Assembly: GCA_024639455.1 (NCBI GenBank)
Contig: JAHEIH010000003.1
Span: 85,276-149,275, forward strand
Length of the DNA: 64,000 nucleotides
Source of the DNA: Cellvibrionales bacterium
GTDB taxonomy: Bacteria; Pseudomonadota; Gammaproteobacteria; Pseudomonadales; JAHEIH01
Direction: 5' to 3'
Under the pieces are notes generated by a model. It saw only the letters and a program-made list of their open reading frames with translations. It did no database searches and was not told where the DNA came from. Positions 32,052 to 48,915 of this stretch are shown here, piece by piece; the first letter of the stretch is position 1, and every line of letters begins with the position of its first letter. Position numbers and translations under genes: made by a program.

Positions 32052-34838
32052 ATGACTGACTACAAATCGACGCTAAACCTGCCCGACACGACTTTCCCCA
32101 TGAAAGCGAGCCTGGCGCAACGCGAACCCGAGATGTTGAAAGCTTGGCAGCAGAGCGATATTTACGGCCAGATCCGTAAAGCGCGAGCAGGCCGCGAACA
32201 GTTCATCTTGCACGACGGCCCTCCGTACGCCAACGGCAATATTCACATCGGCCATGCAGTGAATAAGATCCTCAAGGATATCATTGTAAAATCGCGCACT
32301 TTGAGCGGTTTCGATGCGCCTTACGTTCCCGGTTGGGACTGCCACGGCCTGCCGATTGAACACAACGTTGAAAAGAAAATTGGCAAGGCGGGTGTCAAGG
32401 TGGACCACAAAACCTTCCGTCAGAAGTGCCGTGAATATGCCCGTAAACAGATCGACGGCCAAATGGTCGATTTTGTGCGTATGGGTGTTTTCGGCGAGTG
32501 GGATAATCCCTACTTGACCATGAATTATGTATTCGAAGCTGACATCATTCGCTCGCTTGGCAAAATCGTCGCCAATGGTCACCTGGATCGTGGCTTCAAG
32601 CCCGTGTACTGGTCGGTGGTGGGTGCCTCGGCGTTGGCCGAAGCAGAGGTCGAATACCAAGACAAAACGTCCTACTCGATCTACGTGAAGTACCCCGTTA
32701 TCGAGCAGGCGAACGTTGCCGAGATGATGGGCGCTAGCGGCGAAGGTGAGCTCAAGGTGGTGATTTGGACCACCACGCCTTGGACGCTGCCTTCTAGCCA
32801 AGCAGTTAGCTTGAACGCGGAATTGAACTACGTGTTATTGCAAGGGCAGAGTGAACGCTTGCTGGTAGCCGCTGAGTTGGCCGAGGCCGTGCAAAAAGCT
32901 GGCGATTTTGAAGCCGAGATCGTGGGTCGCTGCCGTGGTAGCCAACTGGAAGGCCAGTTATTACAGCATCCATTCTACGATAACGCGTTGCCCGTGTTAT
33001 TGGGTGATCACGTGACTATCGATGCGGGTACCGGCTGCGTTCACACCGCCCCCGATCACGGCGTAGAAGACTTTAACGTGGGCATGAAATATGGCCTTAG
33101 CACGTTGAATTACGTGGATGAAAACGGCATTTACCGCGATGTGGTAGATCTGTTCGCCGGTGAGCACGTGTACAAGGTCGACGACAAGATTGTCGCGCTG
33201 CTGGAAGAACGCGGCGTACTGTTGGCGCAAAGCAAATTCGTCCACAGCTATCCGCACTGCTGGCGTACGAAAACCCCATTGATCTACCGCGCCACGCCGC
33301 AGTGGTTTGTATCGATGCATAAAAATGGCCTGTTGGATGACGTAAAAGCGTCAGTCAAAGACGTGCGATGGGTACCCGGTTGGGGGCAAGCGCGTATCGA
33401 GGCGATGCTGGAATCAACCCCGGATTGGTGTATTTCGCGCCAGCGCACCTGGGGCGCGCCGATCACCTTGTTCGTACACAAAGACACCCAAGAATTGCAC
33501 CCCAACACGGCCGAATTGATTGAGCGTGTGGCGCAGTTGGTGGAAAAAGACGGGATGGATGCGTGGTTTGACCTCGACCCGCGCGAACTGCTGGGAGATG
33601 AAGCCGGCCAGTACAGCAAGGTAACCGACACCCTCGATGTTTGGTTTGACTCGGGCGTGACCCACGAAGCGGTATTGCAGCGTCGTGACTACCTTCGCTA
33701 CCCCGCAGACCTTTATCTTGAAGGCTCAGACCAACACCGCGGTTGGTTCCAGTCATCGTTGAAAACGGCCATCGCTATCAACGGCAATGCGCCCTACAAG
33801 GCGGTGTTGACCCACGGTTTCACCGTAGACGGTGACGGTCGCAAGATGTCGAAGTCGATCGGCAATACTATTTCTCCGCAAACCGTTATGAACAACCTGG
33901 GTGCCGATGTATTGCGCCTGTGGGTGGCGGCGACCGATTTTTCAGGGGAGATGAGCGTATCGGACGAGATTCTTAACCGCTCTGCTGACTCTTACCGCCG
34001 AATCCGCAATACCGCGCGCTTCCTGTTGTCGAATTTGAATGGCTTTAACCCTGCGACAGACGCGGTAGCGTTTGAGGACATGGTGGCGCTGGATCAGTGG
34101 GCAGTGGATCGTGCGGCGCAGTTACAGGCAGAGATCATCGACTGCTACGACAACTACAACTTCCACATGATCTACCAGAAATTGCACAAGTTCTGCGTGG
34201 TTGATATGGGGGGCTTCTACCTCGATATCATCAAAGATCGCCAGTACACCGCTAAGTCTGACGGCCATGCACGCCGCTCGTGCCAAAGCGCTATGCACAT
34301 TATCATCGAGGCGTTCACCCGCTGGATTGCGCCTATCTTGAGCTTTACCGCCGATGAGTTGTGGAAGGCCATGCCAGATGAGCGCGAAGCGAGTGTGTTT
34401 ATTGCCGAATGGATGGCTATTCCCACGTTAAATGACGCTTCTCAGCGTGAATTTTGGGCGCGCATCGCAGAGGCTAAGCACGCTTTCAACAAGGTGTTGG
34501 AAGGCAAGAAAAAGGATGGCATCAACAAGTCGCTGCAAGCGGAAGTGACCTTGTACGCCGCTGACGGTCTATACCAAGACTTGGCGTCACTGGGTGATGA
34601 ATTGCGCTTTGTGCTGATCGCATCCAAGGCTCAGGTGCTGCCATTGGCAGAGCGCACCGATGCTGATGCCACCGAGTTGGATGGTTTGAAAGTGTCATTG
34701 CAGAAAACCGAAGCCGAGCGCTGTGAACGCTGCTGGCACCACCGTGAAGACGTGGGTAGCCACGCCGGCCACGAGAGCATTTGCCAGCGTTGCGTCGACA
34801 ACATCGAAGGCGCAGGCGAAGAACGGAAATTCGCATAA
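32052..34838 (+). CDS. ileS: isoleucine--tRNA ligase
   Basis: HIGH region [19 protein letters not shown] loop, and a C-terminal zinc finger CERCWHH...CQRC. Confidence 0.97.
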
Positions 34839-35311
34839 TGCGCTTTCTTTGCTACTTGTTAGTATTGGTCGTCGTGTCGCTCGACCTGTGGACCAAAAAC
34901 ATGGCTGAGGCGTACTTAATGTATAACCAACCCGAGGTCATTTTGCCGGTGTTGGATTTTACCCTGCGCTACAATCCAGGGGCAGCGTTTAGCTTTTTGG
35001 CGGATCAGTCGGGTTGGCAGCGTTATTTTTTGAGTGGTTTAGCGGCAGTTGTTAGCTTGTTCTTGGTGGTGTGGATTTACCGTTTAAAACCACAGGAAAA
35101 GCTACTAGGTGTAGGCTTAGCACTTGTGTTAGGCGGCGCTTTAGGTAATTTGTACGACCGCGTAATACTGGGTCACGTGGTAGATTTTATCTCCTTCCAC
35201 TGGAATAACTGGTACTTCCCAGCCTTCAATATCGCCGATTCTGCGATTAGCGTAGGCGCAGTACTTCTGATCATCGATTCGTTTTTTGGTACGGAAAAGA
35301 CTTCTTCATGA
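34838..35311 (+). CDS. lspA: lipoprotein signal peptidase (signal peptidase II)
   Basis: [20 protein letters not shown] and FNIADS motifs. TAATG overlap with ileS. Confidence 0.9.
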   Translation: MRFLCYLLVLVVVSLDLWTKNMAEAYLMYNQPEVILPVLDFTLRYNPGAAFSFLADQSGWQRYFLSGLAAVVSLFLVVWIYRLKPQEKLLGVGLALVLGGALGNLYDRVILGHVVDFISFHWNNWYFPAFNIADSAISVGAVLLIIDSFFGTEKTSS

Positions 35312-35745
35312 CGACAACTATTTCGAGCAACAGCAAAGTTACCCTGCAGTTTGAAATTCGCCTCGACAACGGCGACGTGGTGGATTCGACCTTCGAAAAA
35401 GCGCCCGCAACCTTTGTGATGGGCGATGGATCATTGTTTGCTGGGTTTGAGCGCAAGTTGATCGGCATGGCCGCAGGTCAGCGTGCGACTTACCAAGTGG
35501 CTCCCGAAGATGCCTTTGGCCAGCCCAACCCCCATAATGTGCAAACCTTCAAGCGTTCACAGTTTGATAAAGATATGGAGATTGTGCCCGGTATGATGTT
35601 CTCCTTTGCCGATGCGCAAAACACCGAGCTGCCTGGCGTGGTAAAAGAAGTGACCGAGACCTTTGTCGACGTTGATTTCAACCACCCACTGGCGGGCAAG
35701 ATCCTTAATTTTGAAGTGCTGATTCACGCGGTGGAGGAAGCCTAA
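35308..35745 (+). CDS. fkpB: FKBP-type peptidyl-prolyl cis-trans isomerase
   Basis: 145-aa FKBP/SlyD-like sequence in the conserved lspA-fkpB-ispH position, with 4-nt overlap. Confidence 0.85.
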
Positions 35746-36692
35746 TGCATGTTCAACTCGCCAACCCACGCGGCTTTTGCGCTGGCGTAGACCGCGCCAT
35801 TGATATTGTTAATCGTGCCTTAGATATCTTTGGCGCGCCGGTGTTCGTGCGCCATGAAGTCGTGCACAACAAATTCGTAGTAGGGCAGTTGCGTGATCGC
35901 GGTGCGGTGTTCGTCGACGAACTGCACGAAGTTCCCGACGACGTCATCGTGATTTTCAGCGCCCACGGCGTCTCCAAAGCCGTGCGCGACGAAGCCGACC
36001 GCCGTGGTTTGAAAGTGTTCGATGCCACCTGCCCGCTGGTGACAAAGGTGCACCTCGAAGTGGTGAAGTATTCGCAAGAGGGCATGGAAACCATCCTCAT
36101 CGGCCACCAAGGCCACCCCGAGGTGGAAGGCACCATGGGCCAGTACGACGACAGCAATGGCGGCGTGATTTACTTGGTAGAAGACGAACATCAGGTGGCT
36201 CAACTGCAGGTGAAAGACCCCAATAATCTGGCTTACGTTACACAGACCACGCTTTCCATGGACGATACGGCTAAGGTGATTGCCGCCTTGCGACATCGTT
36301 TCCCCAATATCGTCGGCCCTCGCAAAGACGACATCTGCTACGCCACCCAAAATCGCCAAGACGCCGTGAAGACCCTGTCCCAGCAGTGCGATATGGTGTT
36401 GGTAGTCGGCTCGCCCAATAGCTCCAATTCGAACCGCCTGCGTGAACTGGCTGAGCGCAATGGTTGCGATGCCTACTTAATCGACGGCCCCGCCGATATC
36501 GACCCCAAATGGCTCGAAGGTAAGCAAGCTATTGGTGTGACCGCCGGCGCCAGTGCGCCTGAAGTACTGGTAAGGCAGGTGATCGAAGGCCTACAAGCCA
36601 TGGGGGCTAACGCCCCCGTGGAATTAGACGGCGCACGAGAAAACATTACCTTTTCCCTCCCCAAAGAGCTCCGCCTCGTCCCCGTCGACTAA
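35745..36692 (+). CDS. ispH: 4-hydroxy-3-methylbut-2-enyl diphosphate reductase
   Basis: [19 protein letters not shown] (first cluster Cys). 315 aa. Conserved operon position. Confidence 0.95.
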
Positions 36693-36701
36693 TTCAATTT
36701 C

Positions 36702-36740
36702 GAGATATGTGACCTAGGTCGCATATCTCAATTTATTCTT
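36702..36740 (+). terminator. hairpin terminator after the ribF-ispH operon
   Basis: 28-nt near-perfect palindrome GAGATATGTGAC-ctag-GTCGCATATCTC (36702-36729; 12-bp stem with one G.U pair), followed by AATTTATTCTT. Confidence 0.6.
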
Positions 36741-36826: not shown

Positions 36827-37402
36827 GTGGTATTACGCCCCGCCCAACATAAGGGTTTTACCCTCATCGAACTGATGGTGACCATCGCCATCGCGGCCAT
36901 CCTGTTGACCATTGGTGTGCCCTCGCTGACGAGCTTTTTTGATCGGCAGAAGGTGATAGCGGCGGCTGAAGATATTTACGCAAATATTGCTTTAGCCAAG
37001 AGCCTAGCTATTTCATCCAATCAGGATGTGTCCTTTAAACTTTTCAACTACGACGCCGCCACCAAAGGATATTTTGGTGTGACCGATAATACAATTACTG
37101 ACTATGCAAGTGAATGTCGTGACGGCGTGACACTCGCCGACCTCAAAGTAGGGGATATGGTTTACAAAGTGTCGTCAGATAACCACGAGGGCGTGACATA
37201 TAAAATTGGAGGTGAATCAGGTTTAAGGGCATGGTGTGTTCAGTTTGATAATGTAAGAGGAGCTGTTACAACATTTACAAATTCTGGTGCCAAATATTAT
37301 GTCGACATTACCTATGATGAATTAGATATGCGTGTAAATGTATCACAGTTAGGCCGAATAAGTATTTGTAGTAATGATGTGGGTGGGTACTTGGCATGCT
37401 AA
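36827..37402 (+). CDS. GspH/FimU-FimT-family type IV pilus minor pilin (first gene of the cassette, fimU-like by position)
   Basis: Prepilin motif KG|FTLIELMVTIAIAAILLTIGVPS. GTG start with AAGGA RBS. Confidence 0.8.
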   Translation: MVLRPAQHKGFTLIELMVTIAIAAILLTIGVPSLTSFFDRQKVIAAAEDIYANIALAKSLAISSNQDVSFKLFNYDAATKGYFGVTDNTITDYASECRDGVTLADLKVGDMVYKVSSDNHEGVTYKIGGESGLRAWCVQFDNVRGAVTTFTNSGAKYYVDITYDELDMRVNVSQLGRISICSNDVGGYLAC

Positions 37403-38169
37403 AAAAACAGCGAATGCGATCTCAAAAGGGCTTTACATTAGTCGAACTGATCATCTCAGTGGCGCTGGGTATTGCTGCTGTTTCGGCGATTATGTTTTTT
37501 TATATATCAACGTTGAGTAGCAGTTATACCACTTTAAAGAGCAGTAAACTAAATCAAGAGCTTTCTACAGCCATAGCTATAGTCGTGCAAGATATAAAAC
37601 GTGCTGGATTTGTGGGTGGGACCATTGATCCAAAGTTAAATCCATTTAATGAATTCGGAGAGACATCACTTCGTTTATTTGATTCTAATGCCTCAACTAA
37701 GCCAGTTGCTCTTGCTGATATAAATTCTGCTTCTTTCACTACTGCAAATTGGTTTAGCGACTGTGTTTTATTTAGTTATGATCTGGATAAAGACCAAATT
37801 CTTGATGCAGATGAGTACTTTGGTTATCGAATGACTAGTGATGGAGACTTTCAAATTCATCTTTATAACGGAGTGCCTCCAGTAAATAGTTGCGCCAATA
37901 ATGCCAATTGGCAAAGCCTGATTGATAAAGATGAAATCATAGTTACTAACTTTGTTGTTAGTTTGGAGGACTCAAATTGTATAAACGTTGAAGCTTCAAA
38001 ATCATCTGCTGCCTACAATTGTTACATCATCGAGCCATCTATTGGTGACACTACTGTTGAAGAATTAGTTGTAGAGATTACATTAGATGGAAAATTAGTC
38101 GGTGATGATGTTTCGCTATCTCTTAATCAAAGAGCAAAAATTCGAAATCCAATTGTGAGGATTAGGTGA
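37396..38169 (+). CDS. pilW: PilW-like (GspJ-like) type IV pilus minor pilin
   Basis: KG|FTLVELIISVALG prepilin motif. 257 aa. 7-nt overlap with the upstream gene. Confidence 0.7.
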   Translation: MLKKQRMRSQKGFTLVELIISVALGIAAVSAIMFFYISTLSSSYTTLKSSKLNQELSTAIAIVVQDIKRAGFVGGTIDPKLNPFNEFGETSLRLFDSNASTKPVALADINSASFTTANWFSDCVLFSYDLDKDQILDADEYFGYRMTSDGDFQIHLYNGVPPVNSCANNANWQSLIDKDEIIVTNFVVSLEDSNCINVEASKSSAAYNCYIIEPSIGDTTVEELVVEITLDGKLVGDDVSLSLNQRAKIRNPIVRIR

Positions 38170-39458
38170 TGAAAAGCTCTCAACATGGAGCGGCAACGTT
38201 AATATTTTCTATCGTTGTATTGCTACTCGTAACATTTGTGACATTGTCAACCTCAACCTCTATTATTTCAGAACTAAAAATCGGTAATAATGATTATCGA
38301 TCCAAGCAGGCTTTCGAGGCAGCAGAAGCCGGTATTGCTGAAATTTTTCGGTTATTTGCAGAAGGAAAGCGTCCAGCTGTAGCTGGCGGTATGTTTGGGA
38401 CAATATCTTCGCCTCTCAACTCAGATACCCTAACGTTTACAAATTCTCTTGGTCAAATTTTTACAGCAAACCTTTCTGTTGATGGTGATTTTAATTTAAC
38501 GTCTGTTGGTTTTTCTGATGATTTGAGTGCAACAAAAACAATTACCATACGCGCTGCACTTCCTACGGCGATTAACAATTTACCTGAAAACCCGCTTACT
38601 GCAAGGGGTGCTGTAAATATAGGTGGTGCAGCAAATATCTATAATTCCGAAGGCGCGAGCACAATCTGGGCCGGGGGCGATGTTGCCGCAGGTGTAGGCA
38701 GGACTTATATTGCAAACCCTTCAACATCCGGTCGAAGTGTTACCCATTCATCTCCAGCAGTGGTGCCTGTTCCAGATGCTAATGGAGTTGGAGGCGTATC
38801 TAATTGTTCTGGTCAAACATGCACATTACTTCCTTATCCTCAGTGTCTTGAATATTCATTAACATGTGAATTGACCAAGGCTTCTGACGGAGAAAATGGT
38901 GTAGATGTCATTTCAAATGACAGTGCCTTAGCAGAATTGTCAAAAGATGAGGTTTTTATTAACTACACAGGAGAACCGCCGTCTCAGTTTAGAAATCAAA
39001 CAGCTAACGTTATTAGTTCTTATTCGAATTTTAATGATTTTTACACGAATAATCCCGATGACTCCGTTCAAAGAATAATATGGTTTGATGGAGATTCCTC
39101 TTCCTCGGGTGGTCCTACATTTGGTTGTTCGATTGATATGTCGGGTAACGATGGTGGTACGCAATATACAGAAGCTTTAACACGGTGTGAGTTGGGTGGC
39201 GGAACATTAAATCCTGTAATGATTGTTGTTGATGGCGATTTAACAGTTGCGGGTAACCTTTACATCTTCGGCGCATTAATCGTTCTGGGTGATCTAAAAG
39301 GAAGCGGTTCTGTTGATGTTACTGGTGCACTAGTCGTTACAGGAAGTGCTGCAGAAAGTGGCTCAAAGGATATTAGATTTAGTTCCAGGGCACTTCAGTT
39401 GATCAACGAGAATGCGGTAACGCCATATGCAGCATCAGGTGGCTGGAGTGATTTTTAG
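38166..39458 (+). CDS. pilX: PilX-like (GspK-like) minor pilin, long form
   Basis: PilX_N-type N-terminus QHGAATLIFSIVVLLLVTFVTLS...YRSKQAFEAAEAGIAE. 430 aa. The start overlaps the pilW stop. Confidence 0.7.
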   Translation: MMKSSQHGAATLIFSIVVLLLVTFVTLSTSTSIISELKIGNNDYRSKQAFEAAEAGIAEIFRLFAEGKRPAVAGGMFGTISSPLNSDTLTFTNSLGQIFTANLSVDGDFNLTSVGFSDDLSATKTITIRAALPTAINNLPENPLTARGAVNIGGAANIYNSEGASTIWAGGDVAAGVGRTYIANPSTSGRSVTHSSPAVVPVPDANGVGGVSNCSGQTCTLLPYPQCLEYSLTCELTKASDGENGVDVISNDSALAELSKDEVFINYTGEPPSQFRNQTANVISSYSNFNDFYTNNPDDSVQRIIWFDGDSSSSGGPTFGCSIDMSGNDGGTQYTEALTRCELGGGTLNPVMIVVDGDLTVAGNLYIFGALIVLGDLKGSGSVDVTGALVVTGSAAESGSKDIRFSSRALQLINENAVTPYAASGGWSDF

Positions 39459-39467
39459 GAGTTCTTT

Positions 39468-42356
39468 ATGAAAATATCAAGATCCTCTGGCTTTGGGCTT
39501 ATTGAAGTTATTATTGCTGTGGTAATTGTCTCATTTGGGGTTTTAGCCGTTGGGAAATTGCAAACTTCACTAATCTCTAGTAGTGCTGACTCCAAAGCAA
39601 GAAGTGAGGCGTTGGTTATTGCGCAAGCTCGTATGGAGTTGATGCGTGATTTTGCTTTTCTGACTGATACAGCCTCTAATTTTGTCGATGCTGAATCTTT
39701 CGGTGTAGCTTTTCTGGATGAATTTTCTTCAGGTGGTACTTATCAGGCTTATGGTACAAATGCAGTTTTCATAGTTAAGGATATTACTAGTGCTAATGGA
39801 AATTCTGTTAATGCAGAAGTATTGGTTAGCTGGGTAGCAAGTGATGCTGAGTTACAGTCTGTGAGCGTTAGCTCGGAAATTACCTATACAGATCCTGCAG
39901 GTACCTCTTATGAAGAGAAAGATAAGATTGAACCTTTTGTAGATGCACCAACTGGGAGGGCATTTATTGGTAAAGGTATAGTTGATGATTATTTAACAGC
40001 CGAAGATTGTGGCGGTCCTTGTGGTGATAATGTAGATGGTACTAAAGTGCTTGCTGTAGCAAGCAGTGGCGAGGAAACGACATCAAACCTTTTACTTGCG
40101 GTTGGAGATGACGTGGTACTAACCCTTGAGGAAGCTTGTGAAAGAACGATTTCTACTGATGCTCAAACGAGTGAAGAAAGTACCTATTTTTGTACAGATT
40201 TTGTGACGGTCTCTGGTCGGGTATATATACATGAGGATTATGATGCAAATCTACCTAGCCAGCATTTTGTCCTAGCATCGGATGCCGCTTTTTGTGCGAG
40301 ATACTTCACAAATGGTGAAGGAAATGTTGTTACTTTTGAGTCAGATACAAGCGTAGAAGGTTACTCTGGTCAAAAAACAATTGAGTTTAATGATTTAAAA
40401 AACAACCCATCTTCAGACTTTAGGTTTTTCGAATATACCTGTTATCTTGGCGGCGGTTGGCATGGAAATATTGGTGTTCTTTTTGATGAAGCTGATAACA
40501 AGCAGTTGGTTTGTGTTGGGGATCCTTCAAGTTCAGAAAATCCAGTAAGTAATCAATCACGTCGTGCCTACAGAGGAATGTTGTGGCGTTACTCTGAGAG
40601 CGATGTTGATAAAGCGCCTATTTTGTATCGTGCGGATGACAATGATGTAAAAGAACTAGATTTAGATGCCATTGTTGGTACTGTTAGGTATCACTCATGG
40701 GGTATTGCAGATGCCGCAGTGTTTCCAGGGGACATAACTGCTGAAACAGTTTTGAATCAAAAGAAACATGACTTTTTTGTTGCGGCTACTGATATTTCAG
40801 GTGTTTCTGGTTGTGCAGATGTCGCCGCTTTAGAACCGTCGCTTTTAGATAATAATAACGACGAGTTTTTCTGTTTAAATGAAGCAATGGTTGGTGCGGT
40901 AGGTATAGCTATTGAAGGATCTGCAGGTGGCTATAATTCCAGCCTAGATAGTGTTAGATATGACGACTTGGTTGAAAATGAGCGCGGTAGCTTTTATAAC
41001 CGGTTTTATGGCGAGTGTCCTTATGACCCAACAACCCCACCAAATTTTTTATACGTACTAAAAGGAAAATTTGTAGTAACTGGAGGTAATATTTTAGGTG
41101 GATCTTCAGATTTCCTTAATGCTGTGCTTGATGTAACAACTAGTAAAGGGAACAATTGTCAATTAACTGATGAAAGTTTTGATTTATCTTCAAGCGGTGG
41201 ATTTGACCTGGATTCATCTACAACATCGGATTCAACTGATTACGTCGCTTACTTTAGATGCAATTTATATGACCCCGGAGAAGAGCAAGGTGTTAACCTC
41301 AATCCTCTTGGTTGGGATGGCACTGTTGATGTTGTCATTGATGAGGCATCATCAGAGAATTTCACTTGTGAAACTGATGAAATTTCTTTAAGTAATATAA
41401 CTGCAGATCTTGAGGATCAATTGCTCAAATGTTCCTTGGATGTGGATATTGTGGTTGCGGAAGATGATTCAGTTGCTGTCCTTGAAGGTGGAGAGCAAAA
41501 TTATGTTCTGGGTGCAACTAGCATTACCGCTTTTGAAATAGATGTTTTAGCAAATGACACTTATCCGGGTGATTCACCAGTAATAACAAACGTATCGCTA
41601 ATTTCTGAATCACCTGATCCGGCTTTCAGTGGAAACGTTTATGCTGGTGTTGTTGAGGGCGGAAGTGGATATAGAGTCTACTATTCTCCATCAGCTTCAT
41701 ACTTGGGGCTAACTCAAATTACTTACACTATGAAGGAGAGTGAACTAGCGTTATCTTCCTATTCGGCTACGGTCACGATTAACGTAACATCTTCTGACAA
41801 CCCTGTTTATGCTGTTGATGATAGTGGTTACTTTGTAGCATCGGGCGCAACTTATGTTGCTATCCCGATCGTTGAACTCCTCTCGAACGACTCAGTACTA
41901 GATGGTGTTGCTTCAGTGGAGATAGAAGGTGACATTTACGATTCATCTGATACTTACAATTTTGTTCCCGAAATAAATTTTGGTTTAGACGAGTTTAATT
42001 ATTTAGTCTCTGATTCTGATGATGATAATGATTCGGCAACGGTTTATGTTGAGGTTAGAAAGAAATTTGTATTAGAAGTCCCATTAAATATTTTATCTGG
42101 TCAACTTAAATCGGTAGCTTCAACAGCAGGTGGTGCTTCTTGTGGTGACTGGGATACTTCAGATAAATGTTATTCTCCAGATGTATCAGAGCCTTGGTCA
42201 GGGACTGTTACAATTACTGCAAAATCTGCTAACTCTAGATTATGTGTGAACGGTAATAAATACGTTTCATATGATATAACGTTTACTGATATCACTGATG
42301 ATGCAACTTCAAATGTTGACATTTCATTAGTGTCAAACAACAAAGCTTGTCCATAG
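39468..42356 (+). CDS. pilV: giant PilV-like (GspI-like) minor pilin fused to a ~800-aa Cys-rich, cadherin-like adhesin extension
   Basis: N-terminus SSG|FGLIEVIIAVVIVSFGVLAVGKLQ plus a ~140-aa PilV-like core, then an uninterrupted ORF to 962 aa. 18 Cys, all after residue ~180. Two cadherin-like modules. AGGAG RBS. Confidence 0.75.
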   Translation: MKISRSSGFGLIEVIIAVVIVSFGVLAVGKLQTSLISSSADSKARSEALVIAQARMELMRDFAFLTDTASNFVDAESFGVAFLDEFSSGGTYQAYGTNAVFIVKDITSANGNSVNAEVLVSWVASDAELQSVSVSSEITYTDPAGTSYEEKDKIEPFVDAPTGRAFIGKGIVDDYLTAEDCGGPCGDNVDGTKVLAVASSGEETTSNLLLAVGDDVVLTLEEACERTISTDAQTSEESTYFCTDFVTVSGRVYIHEDYDANLPSQHFVLASDAAFCARYFTNGEGNVVTFESDTSVEGYSGQKTIEFNDLKNNPSSDFRFFEYTCYLGGGWHGNIGVLFDEADNKQLVCVGDPSSSENPVSNQSRRAYRGMLWRYSESDVDKAPILYRADDNDVKELDLDAIVGTVRYHSWGIADAAVFPGDITAETVLNQKKHDFFVAATDISGVSGCADVAALEPSLLDNNNDEFFCLNEAMVGAVGIAIEGSAGGYNSSLDSVRYDDLVENERGSFYNRFYGECPYDPTTPPNFLYVLKGKFVVTGGNILGGSSDFLNAVLDVTTSKGNNCQLTDESFDLSSSGGFDLDSSTTSDSTDYVAYFRCNLYDPGEEQGVNLNPLGWDGTVDVVIDEASSENFTCETDEISLSNITADLEDQLLKCSLDVDIVVAEDDSVAVLEGGEQNYVLGATSITAFEIDVLANDTYPGDSPVITNVSLISESPDPAFSGNVYAGVVEGGSGYRVYYSPSASYLGLTQITYTMKESELALSSYSATVTINVTSSDNPVYAVDDSGYFVASGATYVAIPIVELLSNDSVLDGVASVEIEGDIYDSSDTYNFVPEINFGLDEFNYLVSDSDDDNDSATVYVEVRKKFVLEVPLNILSGQLKSVASTAGGASCGDWDTSDKCYSPDVSEPWSGTVTITAKSANSRLCVNGNKYVSYDITFTDITDDATSNVDISLVSNNKACP
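41445..42056 (+). repeat. two tandem cadherin-like/bacterial Ig-like modules inside the giant PilV-like CDS
   Basis: Module 1 (41445-41798): VAEDDS...IDVLANDTYPGD...LTQITYTM...SATVTINV. Module 2 (41799-42056): YAVDDS...VELLSNDSVLDG...LDEFNYLV...SATVYVEV. The same motif order occurs in both. Confidence 0.6.
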
Positions 42357-42368
42357 GCGTTAATTTTT

Positions 42369-42770
42369 ATGAGAAGACAAACTGGTATTACTTTGTTAGA
42401 GCTAATGATAGTTGTTGCCATCATTGGTATATTGGCTGGGATTGCCTACCCATCTTATCAAAGCTCAGTGTTAAAAAGCCGTCGTGTTGAAGCCCACACT
42501 GATTTGTTTGCGCTTCAACTAGCAATGGAAAAAGCCAGGGGAAATTGTGCGACATATGCCTCAGCTTTTGGTACGGGTGGTTGTGCTTCTTCACAGGTTA
42601 ATTACACCGCGAATTCAAGTTACTACACATTATCGATTTCTGGAGCTTCTGGCGGCGACTACAAGCTGACTGCAACAGCTACTGGTGCCCAGGCCAGTGA
42701 CACTGACTGTGCTACGATCACGCTAACTCGTGACGGCACTCAAGGTGGCACTACTGCGAACTGCTGGTAA
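42369..42770 (+). CDS. pilE: PilE-like type IV pilin
   Basis: TG|ITLLELMIVVAIIGILAGIAYPSYQ. 133 aa with C-terminal Cys pair (DCATITL...NCW). Confidence 0.8.
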   Translation: MRRQTGITLLELMIVVAIIGILAGIAYPSYQSSVLKSRRVEAHTDLFALQLAMEKARGNCATYASAFGTGGCASSQVNYTANSSYYTLSISGASGGDYKLTATATGAQASDTDCATITLTRDGTQGGTTANCW

Positions 42771-43337
42771 TCAACACACCACATTATCCCCATCGACGGC
42801 ATTGACTATGCCGTCGCCATCTTCATCCTTGGCATCTCTCGCTCGGCCCATGCGGCTAATAATCAACCTTGTGGCATAAATCACATCCGCATGTCCTGGG
42901 CAGTACGTTATATGACCAAACTCTTTCACCGTGCCGTTGGGGCGGTGTCTAATATAGTGCCTGCCCACACTCATATTGAACAATACCTGCGCTTCGGCAT
43001 CGTCTAGCTTGGCAAATTCAACCGTTTCGCCGGGGTCGGCCTTGCGGTTTAGGTTTTTATCTTTAAACACCATGATCGTTTTATGTGCGCGGCGATTGCA
43101 GCTGTAAAGGTCATCACTGAAGCAGGTGGTGATTTCGGCATTTTGGGCGATGGCGTAGGCTCTGGCGAAGCGAATGGTTTGGGTGATGCGTTCGGTATCG
43201 GCGTCGCTGCGGGCGCGTTTGAACATGTTTTGGAAGCTAGGCACACCAATGTTGAGCAAGATCGCGAGTATGGCTACGGTGATGACCATTTCTATCAGGG
43301 TAAAGCCGCTCGCTTCGTGTGTCGTGCGCATCGTCAC
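42771..43337 (-). CDS. GspH/FimT-family minor pilin (fimT-like by position next to pilR)
   Basis: SG|FTLIEMVITVAILAILLNIGVPSF. 188 aa. Its stop codon abuts the pilE stop with no intergenic base. Confidence 0.8.
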   Translation of the reverse strand: MTMRTTHEASGFTLIEMVITVAILAILLNIGVPSFQNMFKRARSDADTERITQTIRFARAYAIAQNAEITTCFSDDLYSCNRRAHKTIMVFKDKNLNRKADPGETVEFAKLDDAEAQVLFNMSVGRHYIRHRPNGTVKEFGHITYCPGHADVIYATRLIISRMGRARDAKDEDGDGIVNAVDGDNVVC

Positions 43338-43406
43338 ATTCCTTGTGGTTGATCCTTTGATCAGCCTAGGAAATAGGGATGCGGAAATCTGCTGTCCTGT
43401 GGGACG

Positions 43407-44795
43407 TTATTCGATACCGAGTTTTTCGAGGCGGTAGCGCAGTGAGCGGAAGGTGAGGCCAAGTTTTTTGGCCGCGGCGGTGCGGTTCCAGCGGCAGGCG
43501 TCGAGAGTATCGGTGATGAGCTTTTTCTCAACTTCTCCAAGGTAGGCTTCAAGGTCGATATAGGCTTCGCCATCTTCGTTAATGTGTTGTTGCGGTGTCG
43601 GAAACGGGGCCTTTGCCTTTGCATTAGTGGCTGGTGTCTCCAACCTAGCGGCTTTTTGTAATTGGCTGTAGGCGTTGTTATTGAGCTGCAAGTCGTCTGT
43701 GTTTATCGTTTCGCCATCGCACAGGGCCACGGCGCGCTCAAGGATATTTTCTAGCTCGCGAATGTTACCTGGGAAGTCGTACTCGTGCAGGGCATGCAGG
43801 GCTTCTTGGCTGAGCAGGGTGTCGCTGTGACCCATTTTGGCGAGAATGTGTTTGGCCAGCAAGGGTATGTCGGCTTTGCGTTGGCGTAGCGCGGGGACGT
43901 TAATTTCGATGACATTCAAACGGAAAAACAAGTCGGCGCGGAATTGACCGTCGGCGACAAGCTGAGTCAAATCCTTGTGGGTTGCGCTCAACAGCCTTAC
44001 ATCCACATCAATTTCGCTGTGGCTTCCCACTGGCCTTACCTTTTTCTCTTGAATGGCGCGCAGCAATTTAACCTGCATATTAAGCGGCAGGTCGGCGATC
44101 TCATCGAGAAAAAGGGTGCCACCATTGGCCGCCTCGAACAATCCAGGTTTGTCGCTATTGGCGCCGGTAAAGGCCCCTTTTTTGTGGCCGAAAAATTCGC
44201 TTTCCATGAGTTCGCTGGGAATGGCGCCGCAGTTAATCGGTACAAACGGGCCGTCTTTGCGTGCGCCCATGTTATGTACCAGTCGCGCCACTAATTCTTT
44301 GCCACTGCCGGATTCGCCATGGATAAAAACGGGAGCTTGGTTGCGCGCCACTTTGGCAATGGTGTCGCGCAAGGCCTTGATGTTGGCTGCTTCGCCCAGC
44401 AGTTGTTGGCTGGCATCTAGGGGAGGAGTAACGGCGGATTTTAGGGCGCTTTCGACCAGTTTTTTAAGCCGAGGCATTTCCACTGGTTTATTCAGAAAAT
44501 CAAACGCGCCAAGTTTGAGAGCGTCGATGGCGGTTTCGACATCGCCATGGGCAGTGATCATGGCAATGGGTAGGCCTGGGCAGTGTTGCTGGCCATATTT
44601 GATCACGTCTATACCATCACCGTCCGGCAATCGCATGTCGGTAAGGCAAAGGTCATAGCGGTTGTTGGCCAATTTGTTGACGGCCGCGCGAACGCAGTTA
44701 GCGGTGTCTACGGTCAGCCCCATGCGAGACATGGTCATGCCCAGTAGTTCCAGCAGGTCGGGTTCGTCGTCGATAATCAATACGTGTTGAGACAT
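43407..44795 (-). CDS. pilR: sigma-54-dependent response regulator PilR
   Basis: REC (LIIDDEPD...LTDMRLPDG), AAA+ (GESGSGKE, GAFTGA) and a C-terminal Fis-type HTH. Located in the pil locus. Confidence 0.9.
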   Translation of the reverse strand: MSQHVLIIDDEPDLLELLGMTMSRMGLTVDTANCVRAAVNKLANNRYDLCLTDMRLPDGDGIDVIKYGQQHCPGLPIAMITAHGDVETAIDALKLGAFDFLNKPVEMPRLKKLVESALKSAVTPPLDASQQLLGEAANIKALRDTIAKVARNQAPVFIHGESGSGKELVARLVHNMGARKDGPFVPINCGAIPSELMESEFFGHKKGAFTGANSDKPGLFEAANGGTLFLDEIADLPLNMQVKLLRAIQEKKVRPVGSHSEIDVDVRLLSATHKDLTQLVADGQFRADLFFRLNVIEINVPALRQRKADIPLLAKHILAKMGHSDTLLSQEALHALHEYDFPGNIRELENILERAVALCDGETINTDDLQLNNNAYSQLQKAARLETPATNAKAKAPFPTPQQHINEDGEAYIDLEAYLGEVEKKLITDTLDACRWNRTAAAKKLGLTFRSLRYRLEKLGIE

Positions 44796-44901
44796 GCTTC
44801 GATTATAGCGTCTAATTTGCGTGATATCCCAGTGCTTTATAGAACGCGTTTAAAAGCATTATTACTGGTATACTGCGTGCAATTATTTAAGGCTAAGTGT
44901 T

Positions 44902-46281
44902 ATGTCTACTCCGTTTACTTCGCTGCCGCTACCCGCGGAACAACTCGCCGTTATTGCATCGCTAGGTTTTGATGTGATGACGCCCATCCAGCAGCAAAGC
45001 CTACCTGAAAGTCTGCAAGGTAAAGATGTCTTGGCCCAGGCGCCTACCGGTAGCGGTAAAACGGTGGCTTTTAGTTTGCCTTTGATTCAGAACCTGAAGC
45101 CACGCTCTTTCGCCGTGCAAGCCTTGGTGCTTTGTCCAACGCGTGAACTGGCGGGGCAGGTGGCGGATGAAATTCGTCGTTTGGCAAAATACCCTGGCAA
45201 TATCAAGGTGCTTACACTGTGCGGTGGGCAACCCATAGGTCCGCAGATTGGCTCGTTAGCCCATGGTGCTCATGTCATTGTAGGCACGCCTGGCCGTGTG
45301 TCGGACCATTTGCGGAAGAAAACCTTGGATCTTGCGAACGTTAATACGCTGGTCTTGGACGAAGCGGATCGGATGCTCGATATGGGGTTTAAGGATGATA
45401 TTCTCGCTATCGTCGCGCATACGCCCAAAGATCGCCAGTCACTGTTGTTCTCGGCGACTTACCCAAGTGATATTAAAGCGATGTCGGCGGAGGTGTTAAA
45501 TTCACCGCTACAGGTCAAGGTAAGTGCCGATGACGAAGCGCATACCGATATTGAGCAGCGCGTTTATCAAAAAGCTAGTCTTGATGATTTGCAGGCGCTA
45601 CTTGGGGTATTGAGCCACTACCAACCCGAAGCTGGCATTATCTTTTGTAATACCCGTGAGCAATGTAACGACCTGGGCGTCGACCTCAAGGCGCATGGCG
45701 TGAACGCCGGCGTACTGCACGGCGATATGGAGCAGCGCCAGCGCGACCAAATTTTGATTCGCTTTGCCAATGGTTCACTGCGCTTTTTGATCGCCACGGA
45801 CGTGGCGGCCCGCGGTTTAGATATTCCCCAAGTCGACTTGGTAATCAATGATGGCCTGCCACGAGACTTAGATGTTTTTACCCATCGCAGTGGTCGCACA
45901 GGCCGAGCGGGGCGCAAAGGGCTGGTGGTGTCGGTGATAGCCCCCAAGGAAACCCATAAACTAGAGCGCATCAATGATCAGTTTGGTATACATTTACACG
46001 CGGAACCTGCACCTGCTGTGGATATTTATCGCTTGTCGGAACTCAAGCCCACCATGCGCACGCTGGAAATCGATCGCGGGCGCAAGCACAAGATGCGCCC
46101 TGGCGATATTGTTGGCGCGTTGACGGCCACCAAAGAGATTGCTGGTGGTGATATTGGGCAGATAAACCTTCAGGATATGGCGAGCTACGTCGCGCTACCC
46201 AAGCGACTGGCGGATAAAGGGGTGGAGATACTGCGTTCTCGCCCAATTAAGGGGCGCGGTGTCAGGGCGCGTAAAATCTAA
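44902..46281 (+). CDS. dbpA: ATP-dependent RNA helicase DbpA
   Basis: AQAPTGSGKT, DEAD, SAT and HRSGRTGRAG motifs, plus the DbpA-type C-terminal RNA-binding domain (MRPGDIVGALT). Confidence 0.9.
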   Translation: MSTPFTSLPLPAEQLAVIASLGFDVMTPIQQQSLPESLQGKDVLAQAPTGSGKTVAFSLPLIQNLKPRSFAVQALVLCPTRELAGQVADEIRRLAKYPGNIKVLTLCGGQPIGPQIGSLAHGAHVIVGTPGRVSDHLRKKTLDLANVNTLVLDEADRMLDMGFKDDILAIVAHTPKDRQSLLFSATYPSDIKAMSAEVLNSPLQVKVSADDEAHTDIEQRVYQKASLDDLQALLGVLSHYQPEAGIIFCNTREQCNDLGVDLKAHGVNAGVLHGDMEQRQRDQILIRFANGSLRFLIATDVAARGLDIPQVDLVINDGLPRDLDVFTHRSGRTGRAGRKGLVVSVIAPKETHKLERINDQFGIHLHAEPAPAVDIYRLSELKPTMRTLEIDRGRKHKMRPGDIVGALTATKEIAGGDIGQINLQDMASYVALPKRLADKGVEILRSRPIKGRGVRARKI

Positions 46282-47843
46282 TTCTTGCCAAACAGTATGC
46301 TGAAGCTCTTGCGACGACGACCACCGTGTCGGTAGTCGAGCGCCGCTTGATTAGAAAGACATAGCTCACGGCAAATATAAAGACCTAGTCCGGTACCTTT
46401 GTGCTCGGTGGTGAAAAAGGGTTCAAACAGGTGTGGCACTTGGTCATCGGGTACCGGTTCACCGTAGTCTACCACTGCGAGTGCATAGCGTTGCAGGCGC
46501 TCTACATGTTGCAGGTGAAGCAACACGCCGTGGCCATCTTCCTGTGTCACCGTATAGCGCAGAGCATTGTTGCAAAGGTTGTCTAGTACTTGTTGTAACT
46601 GACTGGGATCAAAGCTGATCACCGCCTCTTGCGCCTCTATTTGACATTTAATCACACCTTGTTGGAGTTGGTTAAATTGTTCACAGAAGCTGTGCAGCCA
46701 TTCGGCTAACTGGATGGTTTGCATTGGCGTGGTTTGGCGCCGCGATAAACTCTGAATGTTTTCGATAATCTGATTCATGCGCCGACTTTGGTGTGCGATA
46801 ATCTCTAGTAATCGCTTGTCTTCATCACCATCGGCGGTTTCGTCGAGTAGTTCGGCTGCGTGTTTAATAGCCGCCAAGGGATTGCGTATTTCATGGGCGA
46901 TACTGGCGGTTAGGCGGCCGAGCGACGCTAGCTTTAACTGCTGAGCTTGTTGGCTAGCTTTGCGCGCGTTTTCTAGAAACACCATGGTATATTGCGCATC
47001 GTCACTGTTAACGTTTTTGAATTGCAAATGAAGTTCATGGTGATCGTGTTGGGTGGTAACCGTAGGTAAGGGCAGTTCAGGATTAGATTTCCACTGCAGG
47101 TATTGCTGCTGAAACATCTGCGGTAGCCGCTTGGGTTGGCCTTTACTCATATCGATATTTAGGGCGCGTTCAGCGCCTCTGTTTAAGGCCCGGACCTCAT
47201 CACCCTCTAATAAAATCACCCCAGTATTTAGTTGTTGAAGGATCAGTTGGTTGAGCTTTTCGGCGGCCGCTTTCTCGCGACTGCTTTTCGCCACCTGTTG
47301 TTCGGCAAGTCGTAGGTTTAGAGCAAAGCGATCCACCACCACGGCGGTAAGCATCAAAAACGCACTGAAAAGGCCGCTGCTGTAGAGATCGATGCGCTCT
47401 TCGCTAGGATAGCCCTGCGACACTAGGCCATCGGTCAGCAATCCTAAAACAAACAGTGACGCGACAACCAAGGCCAAGGGGTTGCCCAGTACCATTGTCG
47501 CAGACGCCACGGTGATCACACATAACAAACTCAACGCGGTAACACCGCTCACTGCGCTGGAATGCAGTGCAATGACCAAAAAGATGGTGTCAAACAAGAA
47601 ACCAGCAAACAGGGCTTGTCGCAGCCACTCGTTGGCGACGCGTTGCCAGTAGCGAATGGCAATAAGGGCGAGTACTACGTAAGTGCTAGAGGCTTGGATA
47701 AAGAGGCTGGGGGCACGTTGCCCCAGCATGCCCTCGCTGCCATTTAGCCAAAAGATTAATGCGAGGGAGACAGCAACAAGTAAACGATAAACACCATAGA
47801 TGTTTAGAAGAGTGGTGGTTGTGGCTCTAGTCTTGTTGATCAC
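46278..47843 (-). CDS. pilS: sensor histidine kinase PilS
   Basis: Multi-TM N-terminus. H-box GRLTASIAHEIRNPLAAIKHAAELL. HATPase GTGLGLYI. The maximal ORF reaches 47945, but GTG 47843 avoids a 119-nt same-strand overlap and gives a ~521-aa product, close to the length I recall for PilS (~530 aa). Confidence 0.85.
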   Translation of the reverse strand: MINKTRATTTTLLNIYGVYRLLVAVSLALIFWLNGSEGMLGQRAPSLFIQASSTYVVLALIAIRYWQRVANEWLRQALFAGFLFDTIFLVIALHSSAVSGVTALSLLCVITVASATMVLGNPLALVVASLFVLGLLTDGLVSQGYPSEERIDLYSSGLFSAFLMLTAVVVDRFALNLRLAEQQVAKSSREKAAAEKLNQLILQQLNTGVILLEGDEVRALNRGAERALNIDMSKGQPKRLPQMFQQQYLQWKSNPELPLPTVTTQHDHHELHLQFKNVNSDDAQYTMVFLENARKASQQAQQLKLASLGRLTASIAHEIRNPLAAIKHAAELLDETADGDEDKRLLEIIAHQSRRMNQIIENIQSLSRRQTTPMQTIQLAEWLHSFCEQFNQLQQGVIKCQIEAQEAVISFDPSQLQQVLDNLCNNALRYTVTQEDGHGVLLHLQHVERLQRYALAVVDYGEPVPDDQVPHLFEPFFTTEHKGTGLGLYICRELCLSNQAALDYRHGGRRRKSFSILFGKN

Positions 47844-48075
47844 TATCGTTTTTCTGCTCGAATTCCTTTTGATGAGCGCTGCAGCAGAACCATTGCGCCC
47901 CCGAGCTAATGGCTTTGTCCTTGGGGATGTAAGTGCCGCATTCACTACACTTAATCATAGTGCCGCTTTGCTTTTCTTGCCTGTCGTAGGCGCTCACGCG
48001 GGCTTTGTAGGCTTGATAGAACTTGTAGACTAACCAAATGGCTAGCCCAAAAACGATAACGCGAATTAGCCCCAT
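47827..48075 (-). CDS. PP0621-family small membrane zinc-ribbon protein
   Basis: 82 aa. N-terminal TM helix LIRVIVFGLAIWLVY. C-terminal CSECGTYIP...WFCCSAH. Immediately upstream of pilS. Confidence 0.65.
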   Translation of the reverse strand: MGLIRVIVFGLAIWLVYKFYQAYKARVSAYDRQEKQSGTMIKCSECGTYIPKDKAISSGAQWFCCSAHQKEFEQKNDSDQQD

Positions 48076-48078
48076 GGC

Positions 48079-48915
48079 TTAGGCCTCGTCGTAGATGGTG
48101 GGGATGGCTTGCCGCTTGTGCTGGGTACGGGTGTAAATTTCTACTAAGCGTTGTTCCACGTCGGCTGACACGGGCTTGCCCTCCAGGAAATCATCTATCT
48201 CGTCGTAGCTCAAACCTAGCACGTGTTCGTCGGCTTTTTGCGGTGCATCGCATTCCAAGTCCGCTGTGGGGGTTTTATCGACCAATTGAGCTGGCGCGCC
48301 TAAAAAAGCCGCCAATTGGCGTACCTGGCGTTTGCTCAAACCAAATAGGGGAGCTAAGTCGCAGGCACCGTCGCCCCATTTAGTATAAAAACCGGTGATA
48401 TTTTCCGCTGAATGATCGGTGCCAAGAACCAGGCCGCCCGTTAAGCCGGCCACCTCGTATTGAATCGCCATACGGGTGCGTGCTTTGACGTTGCCCTTTA
48501 CGAAGTCGATCGACGCGGTGGTATTGTTTAGCATGTTAGCGGCTTGCATGGCACCCAACACTTCTTGGTGGATCCCATCGGCACCTAGCTTTGCGTTAAC
48601 CGCCATGGATACGCTGGGTTGGATGAAGTCGACTGACATCTGCGCCTCGTGTTCATCGTGCTGAACACCGTAGGGTAGACGAACGGCAATAAACTGGTAG
48701 CCAGCGTCGTGATCTTGGTTGAGCTTATCTACCGCCGCCTGGGCTAATTTACCGCAAAGGCACGAATCAATACCTCCGCTAATACCAAGCACCAGGGTCT
48801 TGCTGTTGGCAGCAACTAACCGGTTAGCAATGAAGTCGCGGCGACGTTGACATTCTATTGCGAGGTCAATGTGGGGCAAAACGCGCATTTCTGCGACGAT
48901 CTTATTGCGATTCAT
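48079..48915 (-). CDS. nadE: ammonia-dependent NAD+ synthetase
   Basis: PP-loop [11 protein letters not shown]. 278 aa. Confidence 0.9.

Follow-up and report, generated by a model that had tools for sequence, protein, structure and literature searches.

What gives a type IV pilus its binding specificity and how a tip complex is built without PilY1 are still open questions, and both are raised by a giant PilV-type pilin gene, here called G4, in a 64,000-nucleotide stretch of Cellvibrionales bacterium contig JAHEIH010000003.1 (the window). G4 lies at 39468-42356 (+) and is an open reading frame (ORF) of 962 codons with no internal stop, its ATG preceded 7 nt upstream by an AGGAG ribosome-binding site. 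We conclude that its product is truly one protein, with a minor pilin of the PilV/GspI class covalently joined to a large extension that is not pilin. Taken as a whole, we read G4 as a modular minor pilin of the tip complex of a type IVa pilus whose module serves adhesion, and we give this reading a probability of roughly 0.6. That G4 is a modular pilin of the tip complex is very probable; that its module, judged from its architecture, acts in adhesion may be called an even bet.

The class III leader (residues 1-8) and the PilV/GspI-class pilin domain (residues 9-145) are encoded by 39468..39902 (+). The N-terminus, MKISRSSG/FGLIEVIIAVVIV (slash, cleavage site), has Gly at −1, Phe at +1 and Glu at +5, and the leader with its hydrophobic stretch, MKISRSSG/FGLIEVIIAVVIVSFGVLAV, is that of a type IV pilin. 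An earlier reading made from the letters of the DNA (the sequence-only reading) had described a class III signal and a PilV/GspI-type N-terminus, and the profile matches agree with it. G4 narrowly passed Pfam N_methyl PF07963 (21.5 bits; gathering cut-off 21.2) and matched NCBIfam TIGR02523 PilV (E 3.3e-10, 40.6 bits), the sole pilin-class model to match it. The whole-protein cut-off of TIGR02523 (52.2 bits) was not reached because only profile positions 2-55 of 139, the N-terminal part, align. In a full-length AlphaFold2 model of G4 built on a 61-sequence alignment (mean predicted local distance difference test score, pLDDT, 72), the pilin core consists of a long α1 helix (residues 11-60) and a four-stranded sheet (residues 91-139) with a pLDDT of ∼90, so that the ∼140-residue pilin-like core of the sequence-only reading is recovered within residues 9-145. 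The linker that follows (residues 146-158) was modelled with low confidence.

Beyond the pilin core the reading frame continues uninterrupted, as had been claimed, into an extension that is very acidic and holds every Cys of the protein. The pI (isoelectric point) of G4 is 4.05, residues 151-962 contain 135 Asp and Glu compared with 41 Lys and Arg, and the 18 Cys span residues 181 to 961, with none in residues 1-180. The largest part of the extension is an acidic, Cys-rich and mostly β module (residues 160-660; 39945..41447, +) that defines the family described below. This region was confident and mostly β in the full-length model and, when residues 155-662 were modelled alone from 120 sequences, reached a pLDDT of 87 and a predicted template modelling score (pTM) of 0.83; because it folds confidently by itself, we regard residues 160-660 as an autonomous module. 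The sequence-only reading had proposed structure prediction of residues 150-962, and within these it resolved the module with confidence. The module holds 14 Cys, 12 of which are conserved in the family, and is marked by the motifs PTGRAxLGxG, ASDAA(Y/F)C, YTCYLGGGWHGNIG, RRxYRGM, HDF and CPYDPTDPP. The first of these, in the nearly invariant form PTGRAxxGxG, sits at the pilin-module junction.

Residues 661-865 (41448..42062, +) form two Big_9/cadherin-like, immunoglobulin (Ig)-type spacers, and residues 866-962 (42063..42353, +) form a C-terminal domain of ∼100 aa with 4 Cys and the ending NNKACP, which corresponds to a ∼100-aa segment that comes after the module in most relatives. The sequence-only reading had proposed two cadherin-like modules. 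The first is supported by a marginal match to Pfam Big_9 PF17963 (residues 687-771; 24.8 bits, cut-off 23.6), and the second gave only a sub-threshold tandem-95 match (residues 818-864; 26.5 bits, cut-off 90), although both carry a (V/L)L(A/S)ND motif (LAND at 694, LSND at 805). Both Ig-like domains were β-rich in the AlphaFold2 model, the second (∼788-864) with a pLDDT of ∼75-90. The terminal Cys loop noticed earlier is present as C926...C961-Pro. G4 therefore has the layout of a modular pilin as defined by Raynaud et al. 2021 (a pilin module connected through a short linker to additional structural modules that are not particular to pili), with a pilin domain (9-145), a linker (146-158), an independently folding module and then Big_9-type domains.

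The module resembles nothing that we searched. Neither Pfam nor NCBIfam gave a match inside it in any of 61 family members. With Foldseek, the full-length model of G4 returned only spurious global alignments to integrins and cadherins in the PDB (template modelling score, TM, ∼0.07), and the model of the module alone found no match with a TM >0.13 in the PDB or BFVD. The weak top fold matches, PitA, CupB6 and Spy0128, indicate elongated, β-sandwich, adhesin-like shapes only and are no evidence of homology. At the sequence level, a profile of the whole family found only generic pilin helices among PDB sequences, and a profile of the module found a chance cohesin match (E 0.27) and nothing else. 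We conclude that the module is a novel, uncharacterised domain family without a Pfam model.

The sequence-only reading implied a one-off fusion, a view that did not survive the searches for relatives. A first protein search returned 161 relatives, mostly of 630-700 aa and some of 750-1036 aa; those with named hosts (Microbulbifer, Thalassotalea, Thalassomonas and Colwellia) are annotated as 'type IV pilus modification PilV family protein'. In the species genomes of GTDB, 54 loci were found, all in Gammaproteobacteria, with hosts that include Pseudohongiellaceae, Microbulbifer, Colwelliaceae, Thiohalomonadaceae, Woeseiaceae and several uncultured 'Pseudomonadales'. When a profile of the module alone was searched against 1.84 billion representatives (clusters at 50% identity), 312 matched at E≤1e-3 and 127 at E≤1e-30, giving a family of at least 312 clusters. 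In every full-length match listed, the module starts at about residue 145-200 and always follows the pilin domain; the few apparent exceptions were N-terminally truncated gene calls that still contain strands of the pilin head.

The common architecture is a pilin of ∼150 aa, a module of 390-545 aa and a C-terminal domain of ∼100 aa (median 100), and a subset of relatives carries one or two extra Ig-like domains between the last two. Big_9 or cadherin domains were detected in 8 of 61 relatives (best E 1e-19) and are thus an optional insertion within the family, and a terminal Cys-Pro is present in 54 of 119. Nearly all of the 61 members (60) match TIGR02523 PilV, compared with 29 for ComGE, the monoderm PilV homologue, and 14 for GspI; N_methyl was found at E≤1e-3 in 51 of the 61. 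Mean pairwise identity in the family is 51% in the helix, 32% in the pilin head, 48% in the proximal module half (160-380), 36% in the distal module half and 23% in the C-terminal domain. In the largest members, P0154 (1584 aa) and P0149 (1462 aa), repeats of the type Y-x-x-V-G-x-G-x-G-D-Y, amounting to several hundred residues, separate the module from the C-terminal domain, and the position after the module therefore tolerates very different types of spacer.

The fusion is also stable across assemblies and under selection. An identical 962-aa product was called on contigs of SRR12825405, SRR12825407 and SRR12825408 as well as on the NCBI contig, and an 87%-identical orthologue occurs in the same context in two further runs (loci L060 and L061). 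Measured against this orthologue, the ratio of nonsynonymous to synonymous substitution rates (dN/dS) was 0.13 over the full length of G4, and five segments taken separately gave 0.08-0.19; for comparison, ileS, ispH and nadE gave 0.03-0.04. The Ig-like spacers evolve fastest (75% identity and a dN/dS of 0.19 relative to L061). Because dN/dS is low in all segments, coding constraint acts on both sides of the pilin-module junction.

G4 is the fourth gene of a tightly packed cassette (36827-42770) in which G1 and G2 overlap by 7 nt, G2 and G3 overlap by 4 nt and the other gaps are 9-12 nt. The first gene, G1 (36827..37402, +; 191 aa), encodes a FimU/GspH-class minor pilin (N_methyl, 35.7 bits; sub-threshold GspH match) and the second, G2 (37396..38169, +; 257 aa), a PpdB-like PilW/GspJ-class minor pilin (NCBIfam PRK10557, E 1.3e-13; Pfam PF27121 PpdB). 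G3 (38166..39458, +; 430 aa) is an enlarged PilX/GspK-class capping pilin (Pfam PilX_N, E 1.7e-9), and G4 is followed by G5 (42369..42770, +; 133 aa), a PilE-like pilin (Pfam ComP_DUS, E 1e-19; N_methyl). The GspH-, J-, K- and I-like core minor pilins listed in the sequence-only reading are therefore all present in G1-G4. Only five pilin ORFs with a GxxxxE motif occur in the window, G4 is the sole I-class pilin among them, and no second short PilV-type pilin was found in the window. Operon position likewise places G4 in the PilV/GspI class, as the only I-class gene beside G1 (H), G2 (J) and G3 (K). The order G1-G2-G3-G4 is kept in every related locus wherever the flanks reach, and G5 follows G4 in most.

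The N-terminus of G3, QHG/AATLIF, lacks Glu+5. A missing Glu at this position is the hallmark of a capping pilin (PMC12040237), and G3 is therefore the capping, K-class subunit; its family members are 390-450 aa long. At 430 aa, G3 is about twice the usual size, with a pI of 4.3 and 6 Cys, and its Gly-rich, repetitive-looking C-terminus (VDGDLTVAGNLYIFGALIVLGDLKGSGSVDVTGALVVTG) suggests a β-helix. A profile of the G3 family searched against the PDB gave Thermus ComZ (6qvi) at a non-significant E of 0.35, a lead only.

The gene order of the cassette equals FimT-PilW-PilX-PilV of V. cholerae and ppdA-ppdB-ygdB-ppdC of E. coli. At the sequence level, G1 is the best match of E. coli PpdA, G2 and PpdB are reciprocal best matches (53 bits) and PpdC (107 aa) best matches the profile of the G4 pilin domain, weakly, at 19.4 bits. 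In the V. cholerae competence operon (VC0858-0861), the helical order modelled from the cap is PilX, PilV, PilW and FimT (PMC12040237). Given the order shared with these two operons, the giant gene stands at the native fourth position of pilV and not in an emptied pilY1 slot. The sequence-only reading placed G4 in the pilY1 position; relative to the P. aeruginosa order this is literally correct, but as a statement about a vacated slot it fails, since pilV is natively fourth in this type of operon.

The cassette differs from its surroundings in composition and moves as a unit. G+C content at third codon positions (GC3) is 0.43, 0.27, 0.28, 0.26 and 0.38 for G1 to G5, compared with 0.53-0.67 for all flanking genes (32052-36692 and 42771-48915). 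Two close lineages, L061/L060 and L006, are equally related to the window by ispH (96% identity for both). In L061/L060, G1-G4 are 87-96% identical to those of the window, with flanks at 85-97%. In L006, G1-G4 are only 35-42% identical, although FimT (94%), PilS (92%), PilR (85%) and PilE (84%) are conserved, and the L006 allele of the cassette is likewise low in GC3. From this contrast we conclude that G1-G4 recombine as a block between close relatives. Exchange as a block fits four proteins that need to match one another in a single complex under diversifying pressure.

These results suggest how G4 might act. Prepilin peptidase would cleave G4, and its pilin domain would join G3 (the cap), G2 and G1 in the priming or tip complex, where it would fill the I position, immediately beneath the enlarged cap formed by PilX. 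By analogy with the V. cholerae models, in which PilV lies directly under the PilX cap, the flexible linker (146-158) would let the module protrude at the tip of the pilus. Residues 160-380, the conserved proximal half of the module, are probably the part that docks, either on the enlarged PilX or on the tip complex. The distal half, which varies more, would face the environment together with the C-terminal domain and any Ig-like spacers, and these parts would bind a surface ligand. A cassette without PilY1 would thus gain an effector, most likely an adhesin, that is anchored covalently at the tip; its 7 to 9 disulfides would form by oxidation in the periplasm, before it is extruded. Many disulfides, acidity and Big_9/cadherin spacers are typical of extracellular adhesins.

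Several observations weigh against an adhesive tip pilin. The tip location is drawn from models of other systems, and the module has no homology that would point to a function. The first Ig-like domain (∼661-775) and the last ∼100 residues were of low confidence in the AlphaFold2 model. Many polar residues of the module are invariant (R164, S271, D272, H332, N334, R365, R366, Y368, R369, D415, H434 and D435), and these are as compatible with a site for catalysis or for binding a specific ligand as with the surface of an adhesin. Finally, the DNA-binding motif in the adjacent FimT means that the pilus may be mainly a competence pilus, and an extremely acidic tip module has no obvious role in a competence pilus.

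The main rival to an adhesin, though an unlikely one, is that the module is a domain for catalysis or for binding one specific ligand, for example a hydrolase or lectin that recognises an anionic polysaccharide from the sea, and that the pilus delivers it as an enzyme or receptor at its tip instead of a generic adhesin. In favour of this, conservation in the proximal half of the module equals that in the pilin helix (48% and 51%), and invariant Arg, His, Asp, Ser and Tyr residues lie in the motifs ASDAAxC, GGGWHGN, RRxYRGM and HDF. The named hosts Microbulbifer, Thalassotalea, Thalassomonas and Colwellia also fit, as polysaccharide degraders are common in these genera. The catalogued modular pilins, moreover, include some whose modules are predicted to be peptidases or to bind carbohydrate (PMC8179133). 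However, no enzyme or lectin family was matched by sequence or fold, and the conservation may just as well stem from contacts with the tip complex on which the module would dock.

A second and rather improbable explanation is that the pilus primed by the cassette is a type IVa pilus for DNA uptake (competence). The module would then not be the functional end-point but would serve, for example, as a shield, as a retraction or secretin-gating element, or as a decoy under phage pressure. Its gene order is the same as that of VC0858-0861. Convergent with the cassette lies G6, a GspH-class FimT gene (42771..43337, −; Pfam GspH, E 7e-10) whose product ends in SRMGRARDAKDEDGDGIV with a C-terminal GRAR, and a G-[RK]-x-[RK] motif is also present in 21 of 23 orthologues beside related cassettes. 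This motif is the DNA-binding motif of FimT in competence pili (PMC12040237), and its presence suggests that the pilus may also take up DNA. The hypervariable cassette, swapped between close relatives, is in addition what would be expected of a surface structure exposed to phages or predators. Nevertheless, FimT, with its DNA-binding motif, is not part of the variable unit and is 94% conserved, the module has a pI of ∼4, which is unfavourable near DNA, all domains are under purifying selection, and the Ig-like spacers point to a role in binding on the outer side.

The sequence-only reading went further and held that an adhesin grafted onto PilV replaces PilY1. The covalent fusion to PilV stands and an adhesin is suggested by the architecture, but a vacated slot and a relation to PilY1 do not, and replacement is unproven. 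The underlying observation of no pilY1-like ORF was borne out for the cluster and the window: the PilY1 domain PF05567 had no match in the ten large window ORFs scanned with Pfam, and phmmer with Colwellia PilY1 against all window ORFs returned nothing. PF05567 was likewise absent from G4 and all 61 relatives, alignment of the module profile with a PilY1 alignment (hhalign) gave a probability of 0.4%, and Foldseek against the PDB returned no PilY1 propeller for the module. The V. cholerae competence type IVa pilus is described as lacking a PilC/PilY1 orthologue, and its PilK-class subunit has its own terminal strand (PMC12918778).

Related loci differ in how the giant-PilV cassette stands to PilY1. 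In Colwellia sp. 12G3 (L005/L038), in L044 and in L047 (Woeseiaceae) the cassette lies directly beside a canonical PilV-PilW-PilX-PilY1-PilE set, and this coexistence means that giant PilV and PilY1 are not mutually exclusive. Thalassotalea litorea and T. mangrovi have two giant-PilV cassettes in tandem (L020, L029 and L030), and in the lineages closest to the window (L006, L021, L008, L017 and L060/L061) the giant-PilV cassette is the only set between ispH and fimT-pilRS. Several Colwelliaceae loci carry a second set of small pilins, PilV-PilW-PilX-PilE, with no PilY1 between PilX and PilE.

It is very improbable, then, that a divergent PilY1/PilC makes up the extension, fused to PilV as a direct replacement of PilY1. 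The lack of a PilY1 gene in cluster and window and the location of G4 after pilX and before pilE, as for pilY1 of P. aeruginosa, favour such a fusion, but the hhalign probability, the zero of 61 members with PF05567, the lack of a propeller in the fold search, the cassettes that sit beside a canonical PilY1 set in Colwellia 12G3, L044 and L047, and the fact that the fourth position is pilV's own in this operon type all oppose it. The chance that a sequencing error near 39.9-40.0 kb, or an annotation fault, linked a normal pilV to the gene after it is negligible, as nothing but the unusual length speaks for such an artefact, and the identical protein in three independent assemblies and the NCBI contig, the hundreds of relatives that share the fusion, the nearly invariant PTGRAxxGxG at the junction and the coding constraint flanking it on both sides speak against it.

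Parts of this arrangement are known already: the modular-pilin concept, enlarged K-class subunits and type IVa pili without PilY1 have all been described (PMC8179133; PMC12918778). The closest counterparts are the V. cholerae VC0858-VC0861 and E. coli ppdA-ppdB-ygdB-ppdC operons, which share the H-J-K-I order, a K subunit without Glu5 and the lack of a PilY1 gene in the operon (PMC12040237; PMC12918778). However, their I subunit is a plain small pilin, to which the G4 family adds 500-1400 residues, and the K subunit is ∼400-430 aa in giant-PilV cassettes compared with 135 aa for E. coli YgdB. PilY1/PilC, like G4, is large and belongs to the minor-pilin operon; it is tip-associated, as G4 would be, and has a modular N-terminus sometimes with Big_9, and the role of G4 is presumably analogous. 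Unlike G4, which has a pilin anchor, PilY1/PilC is not a pilin; it has a PF05567 β-propeller and a C-terminus that complements PilK/PilX with a strand (PMC12918778).

Modular pilins are widespread, 'N_methyl + Big_9' is among 264 catalogued architectures (PMC8179133), and Big_9 also occurs in the N-termini of PilY1 (PMC8179133 datasets). S. sanguinis PilB, with a von Willebrand factor A (vWA) module, and PilC, with a lectin module, are the proteins for which modular pilins were defined, and they resemble G4 in that the filament displays a bulky functional module tied to a small pilin by a short linker (PMC8179133). These are proteins of a monoderm with recognisable modules, whereas the carrier in G4 is a PilV/GspI-class core tip subunit of a diderm type IVa pilus and its main module matches no known domain. 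The type IVb pilins CofB and TcpB likewise combine a pilin domain with C-terminal β-rich domains at the tip (PMC8179133), but each is a single minor pilin that forms homotrimeric tips, whereas G4 is one of four heterologous core subunits. In the K class, GspK of the type II secretion system, Thermus ComZ (a β-solenoid) and Caulobacter CpaL/TadG are also core tip-complex subunits enlarged by an extra domain (PMC8179133; PMC12918778). There, however, it is the K cap that is enlarged, by a domain inserted into the pilin sheet, whereas in G4 it is the I subunit, and the extension begins only once the pilin head is complete. In the giant-PilV cassette, a counterpart of ComZ may be G3.

PilV of the IncI thin pilus and G4 both vary by DNA exchange, the former through a shufflon and the latter through cassette replacement. 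The two belong to unrelated sequence families, the IncI pili being type IVb conjugative pili, and share a name by coincidence. Like G4, the IncI PilV of R64 and TP114 is a minor pilin, and its variable C-terminal adhesin determines what the pilus binds (PMC9045228).

Our literature searches found no paper that describes a PilV/GspI-class core subunit as the carrier, the G4 module or a cassette with an enlarged PilX. An I-class core subunit with a large module adds to the known solutions, namely PilY1/PilC, enlarged K caps and the modular pilins of monoderms and type IVb systems. We suggest, tentatively, that the family defines a distinct, PilY1-independent tip architecture of type IVa pili in which an I-class PilV covalently carries the tip effector (400-550 residues of a disulfide-rich fold not described before), has an enlarged PilX cap as its partner, and forms with G1-G3 a horizontally exchanged specificity cassette at the conserved pilus locus. 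In such an architecture the proximal half of the module or the Cys-Pro C-terminus may supply in cis, possibly by β-strand complementation, the PilX contacts that PilY1 gives in trans. The family offers a natural test case, since the pilin part must keep its role in assembly while the module varies, and the cassette alleles of close relatives are only 35-42% identical. As the family is common in environmental, largely marine Gammaproteobacteria, and is found in soil also, the module may bear on attachment to particles or algal surfaces.

The cassette lies between ileS-lspA-fkpB-ispH upstream and fimT, pilR, a helicase gene and pilS downstream. In P. aeruginosa, fimT-fimU-pilVWXY1Y2E occupies such an ileS-lspA-fkpB-ispH / pilRS neighbourhood. 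A terminator-like hairpin at 36702-36729 (+), with a 12-bp stem and a T-rich tail, stands just after ispH and likely separates it from the cassette. A scan of the cassette for sigma-70 promoters returned fewer sites than shuffled controls, and none in the 134-bp gap before G1. On the other side, the genes of the two-component regulators of type IV pili, pilR (43407-44795, −; Response_reg/Sigma54_activat/HTH_8) and pilS (46278-47945, −; 6TM_PilS/HisKA/HATPase_c), are separated by a gene on the opposite strand for a DbpA-type DEAD-box RNA helicase (44902-46281, +), as they are in L001, L060 and L006. Between pilS and the NAD synthase gene is an 82-aa ORF (47827-48075, −) with no Pfam match, found at the same position in L001 and L060. 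Elsewhere in the window, at 3862-7784 (−), a gene for a FAN1-like nuclease (FAN1_HTH, SAP and VRR-NUC; 558 aa) lies directly downstream of one for a DinG/XPD-type helicase (749 aa), and the two may be a bacterial pair for interstrand-crosslink repair.

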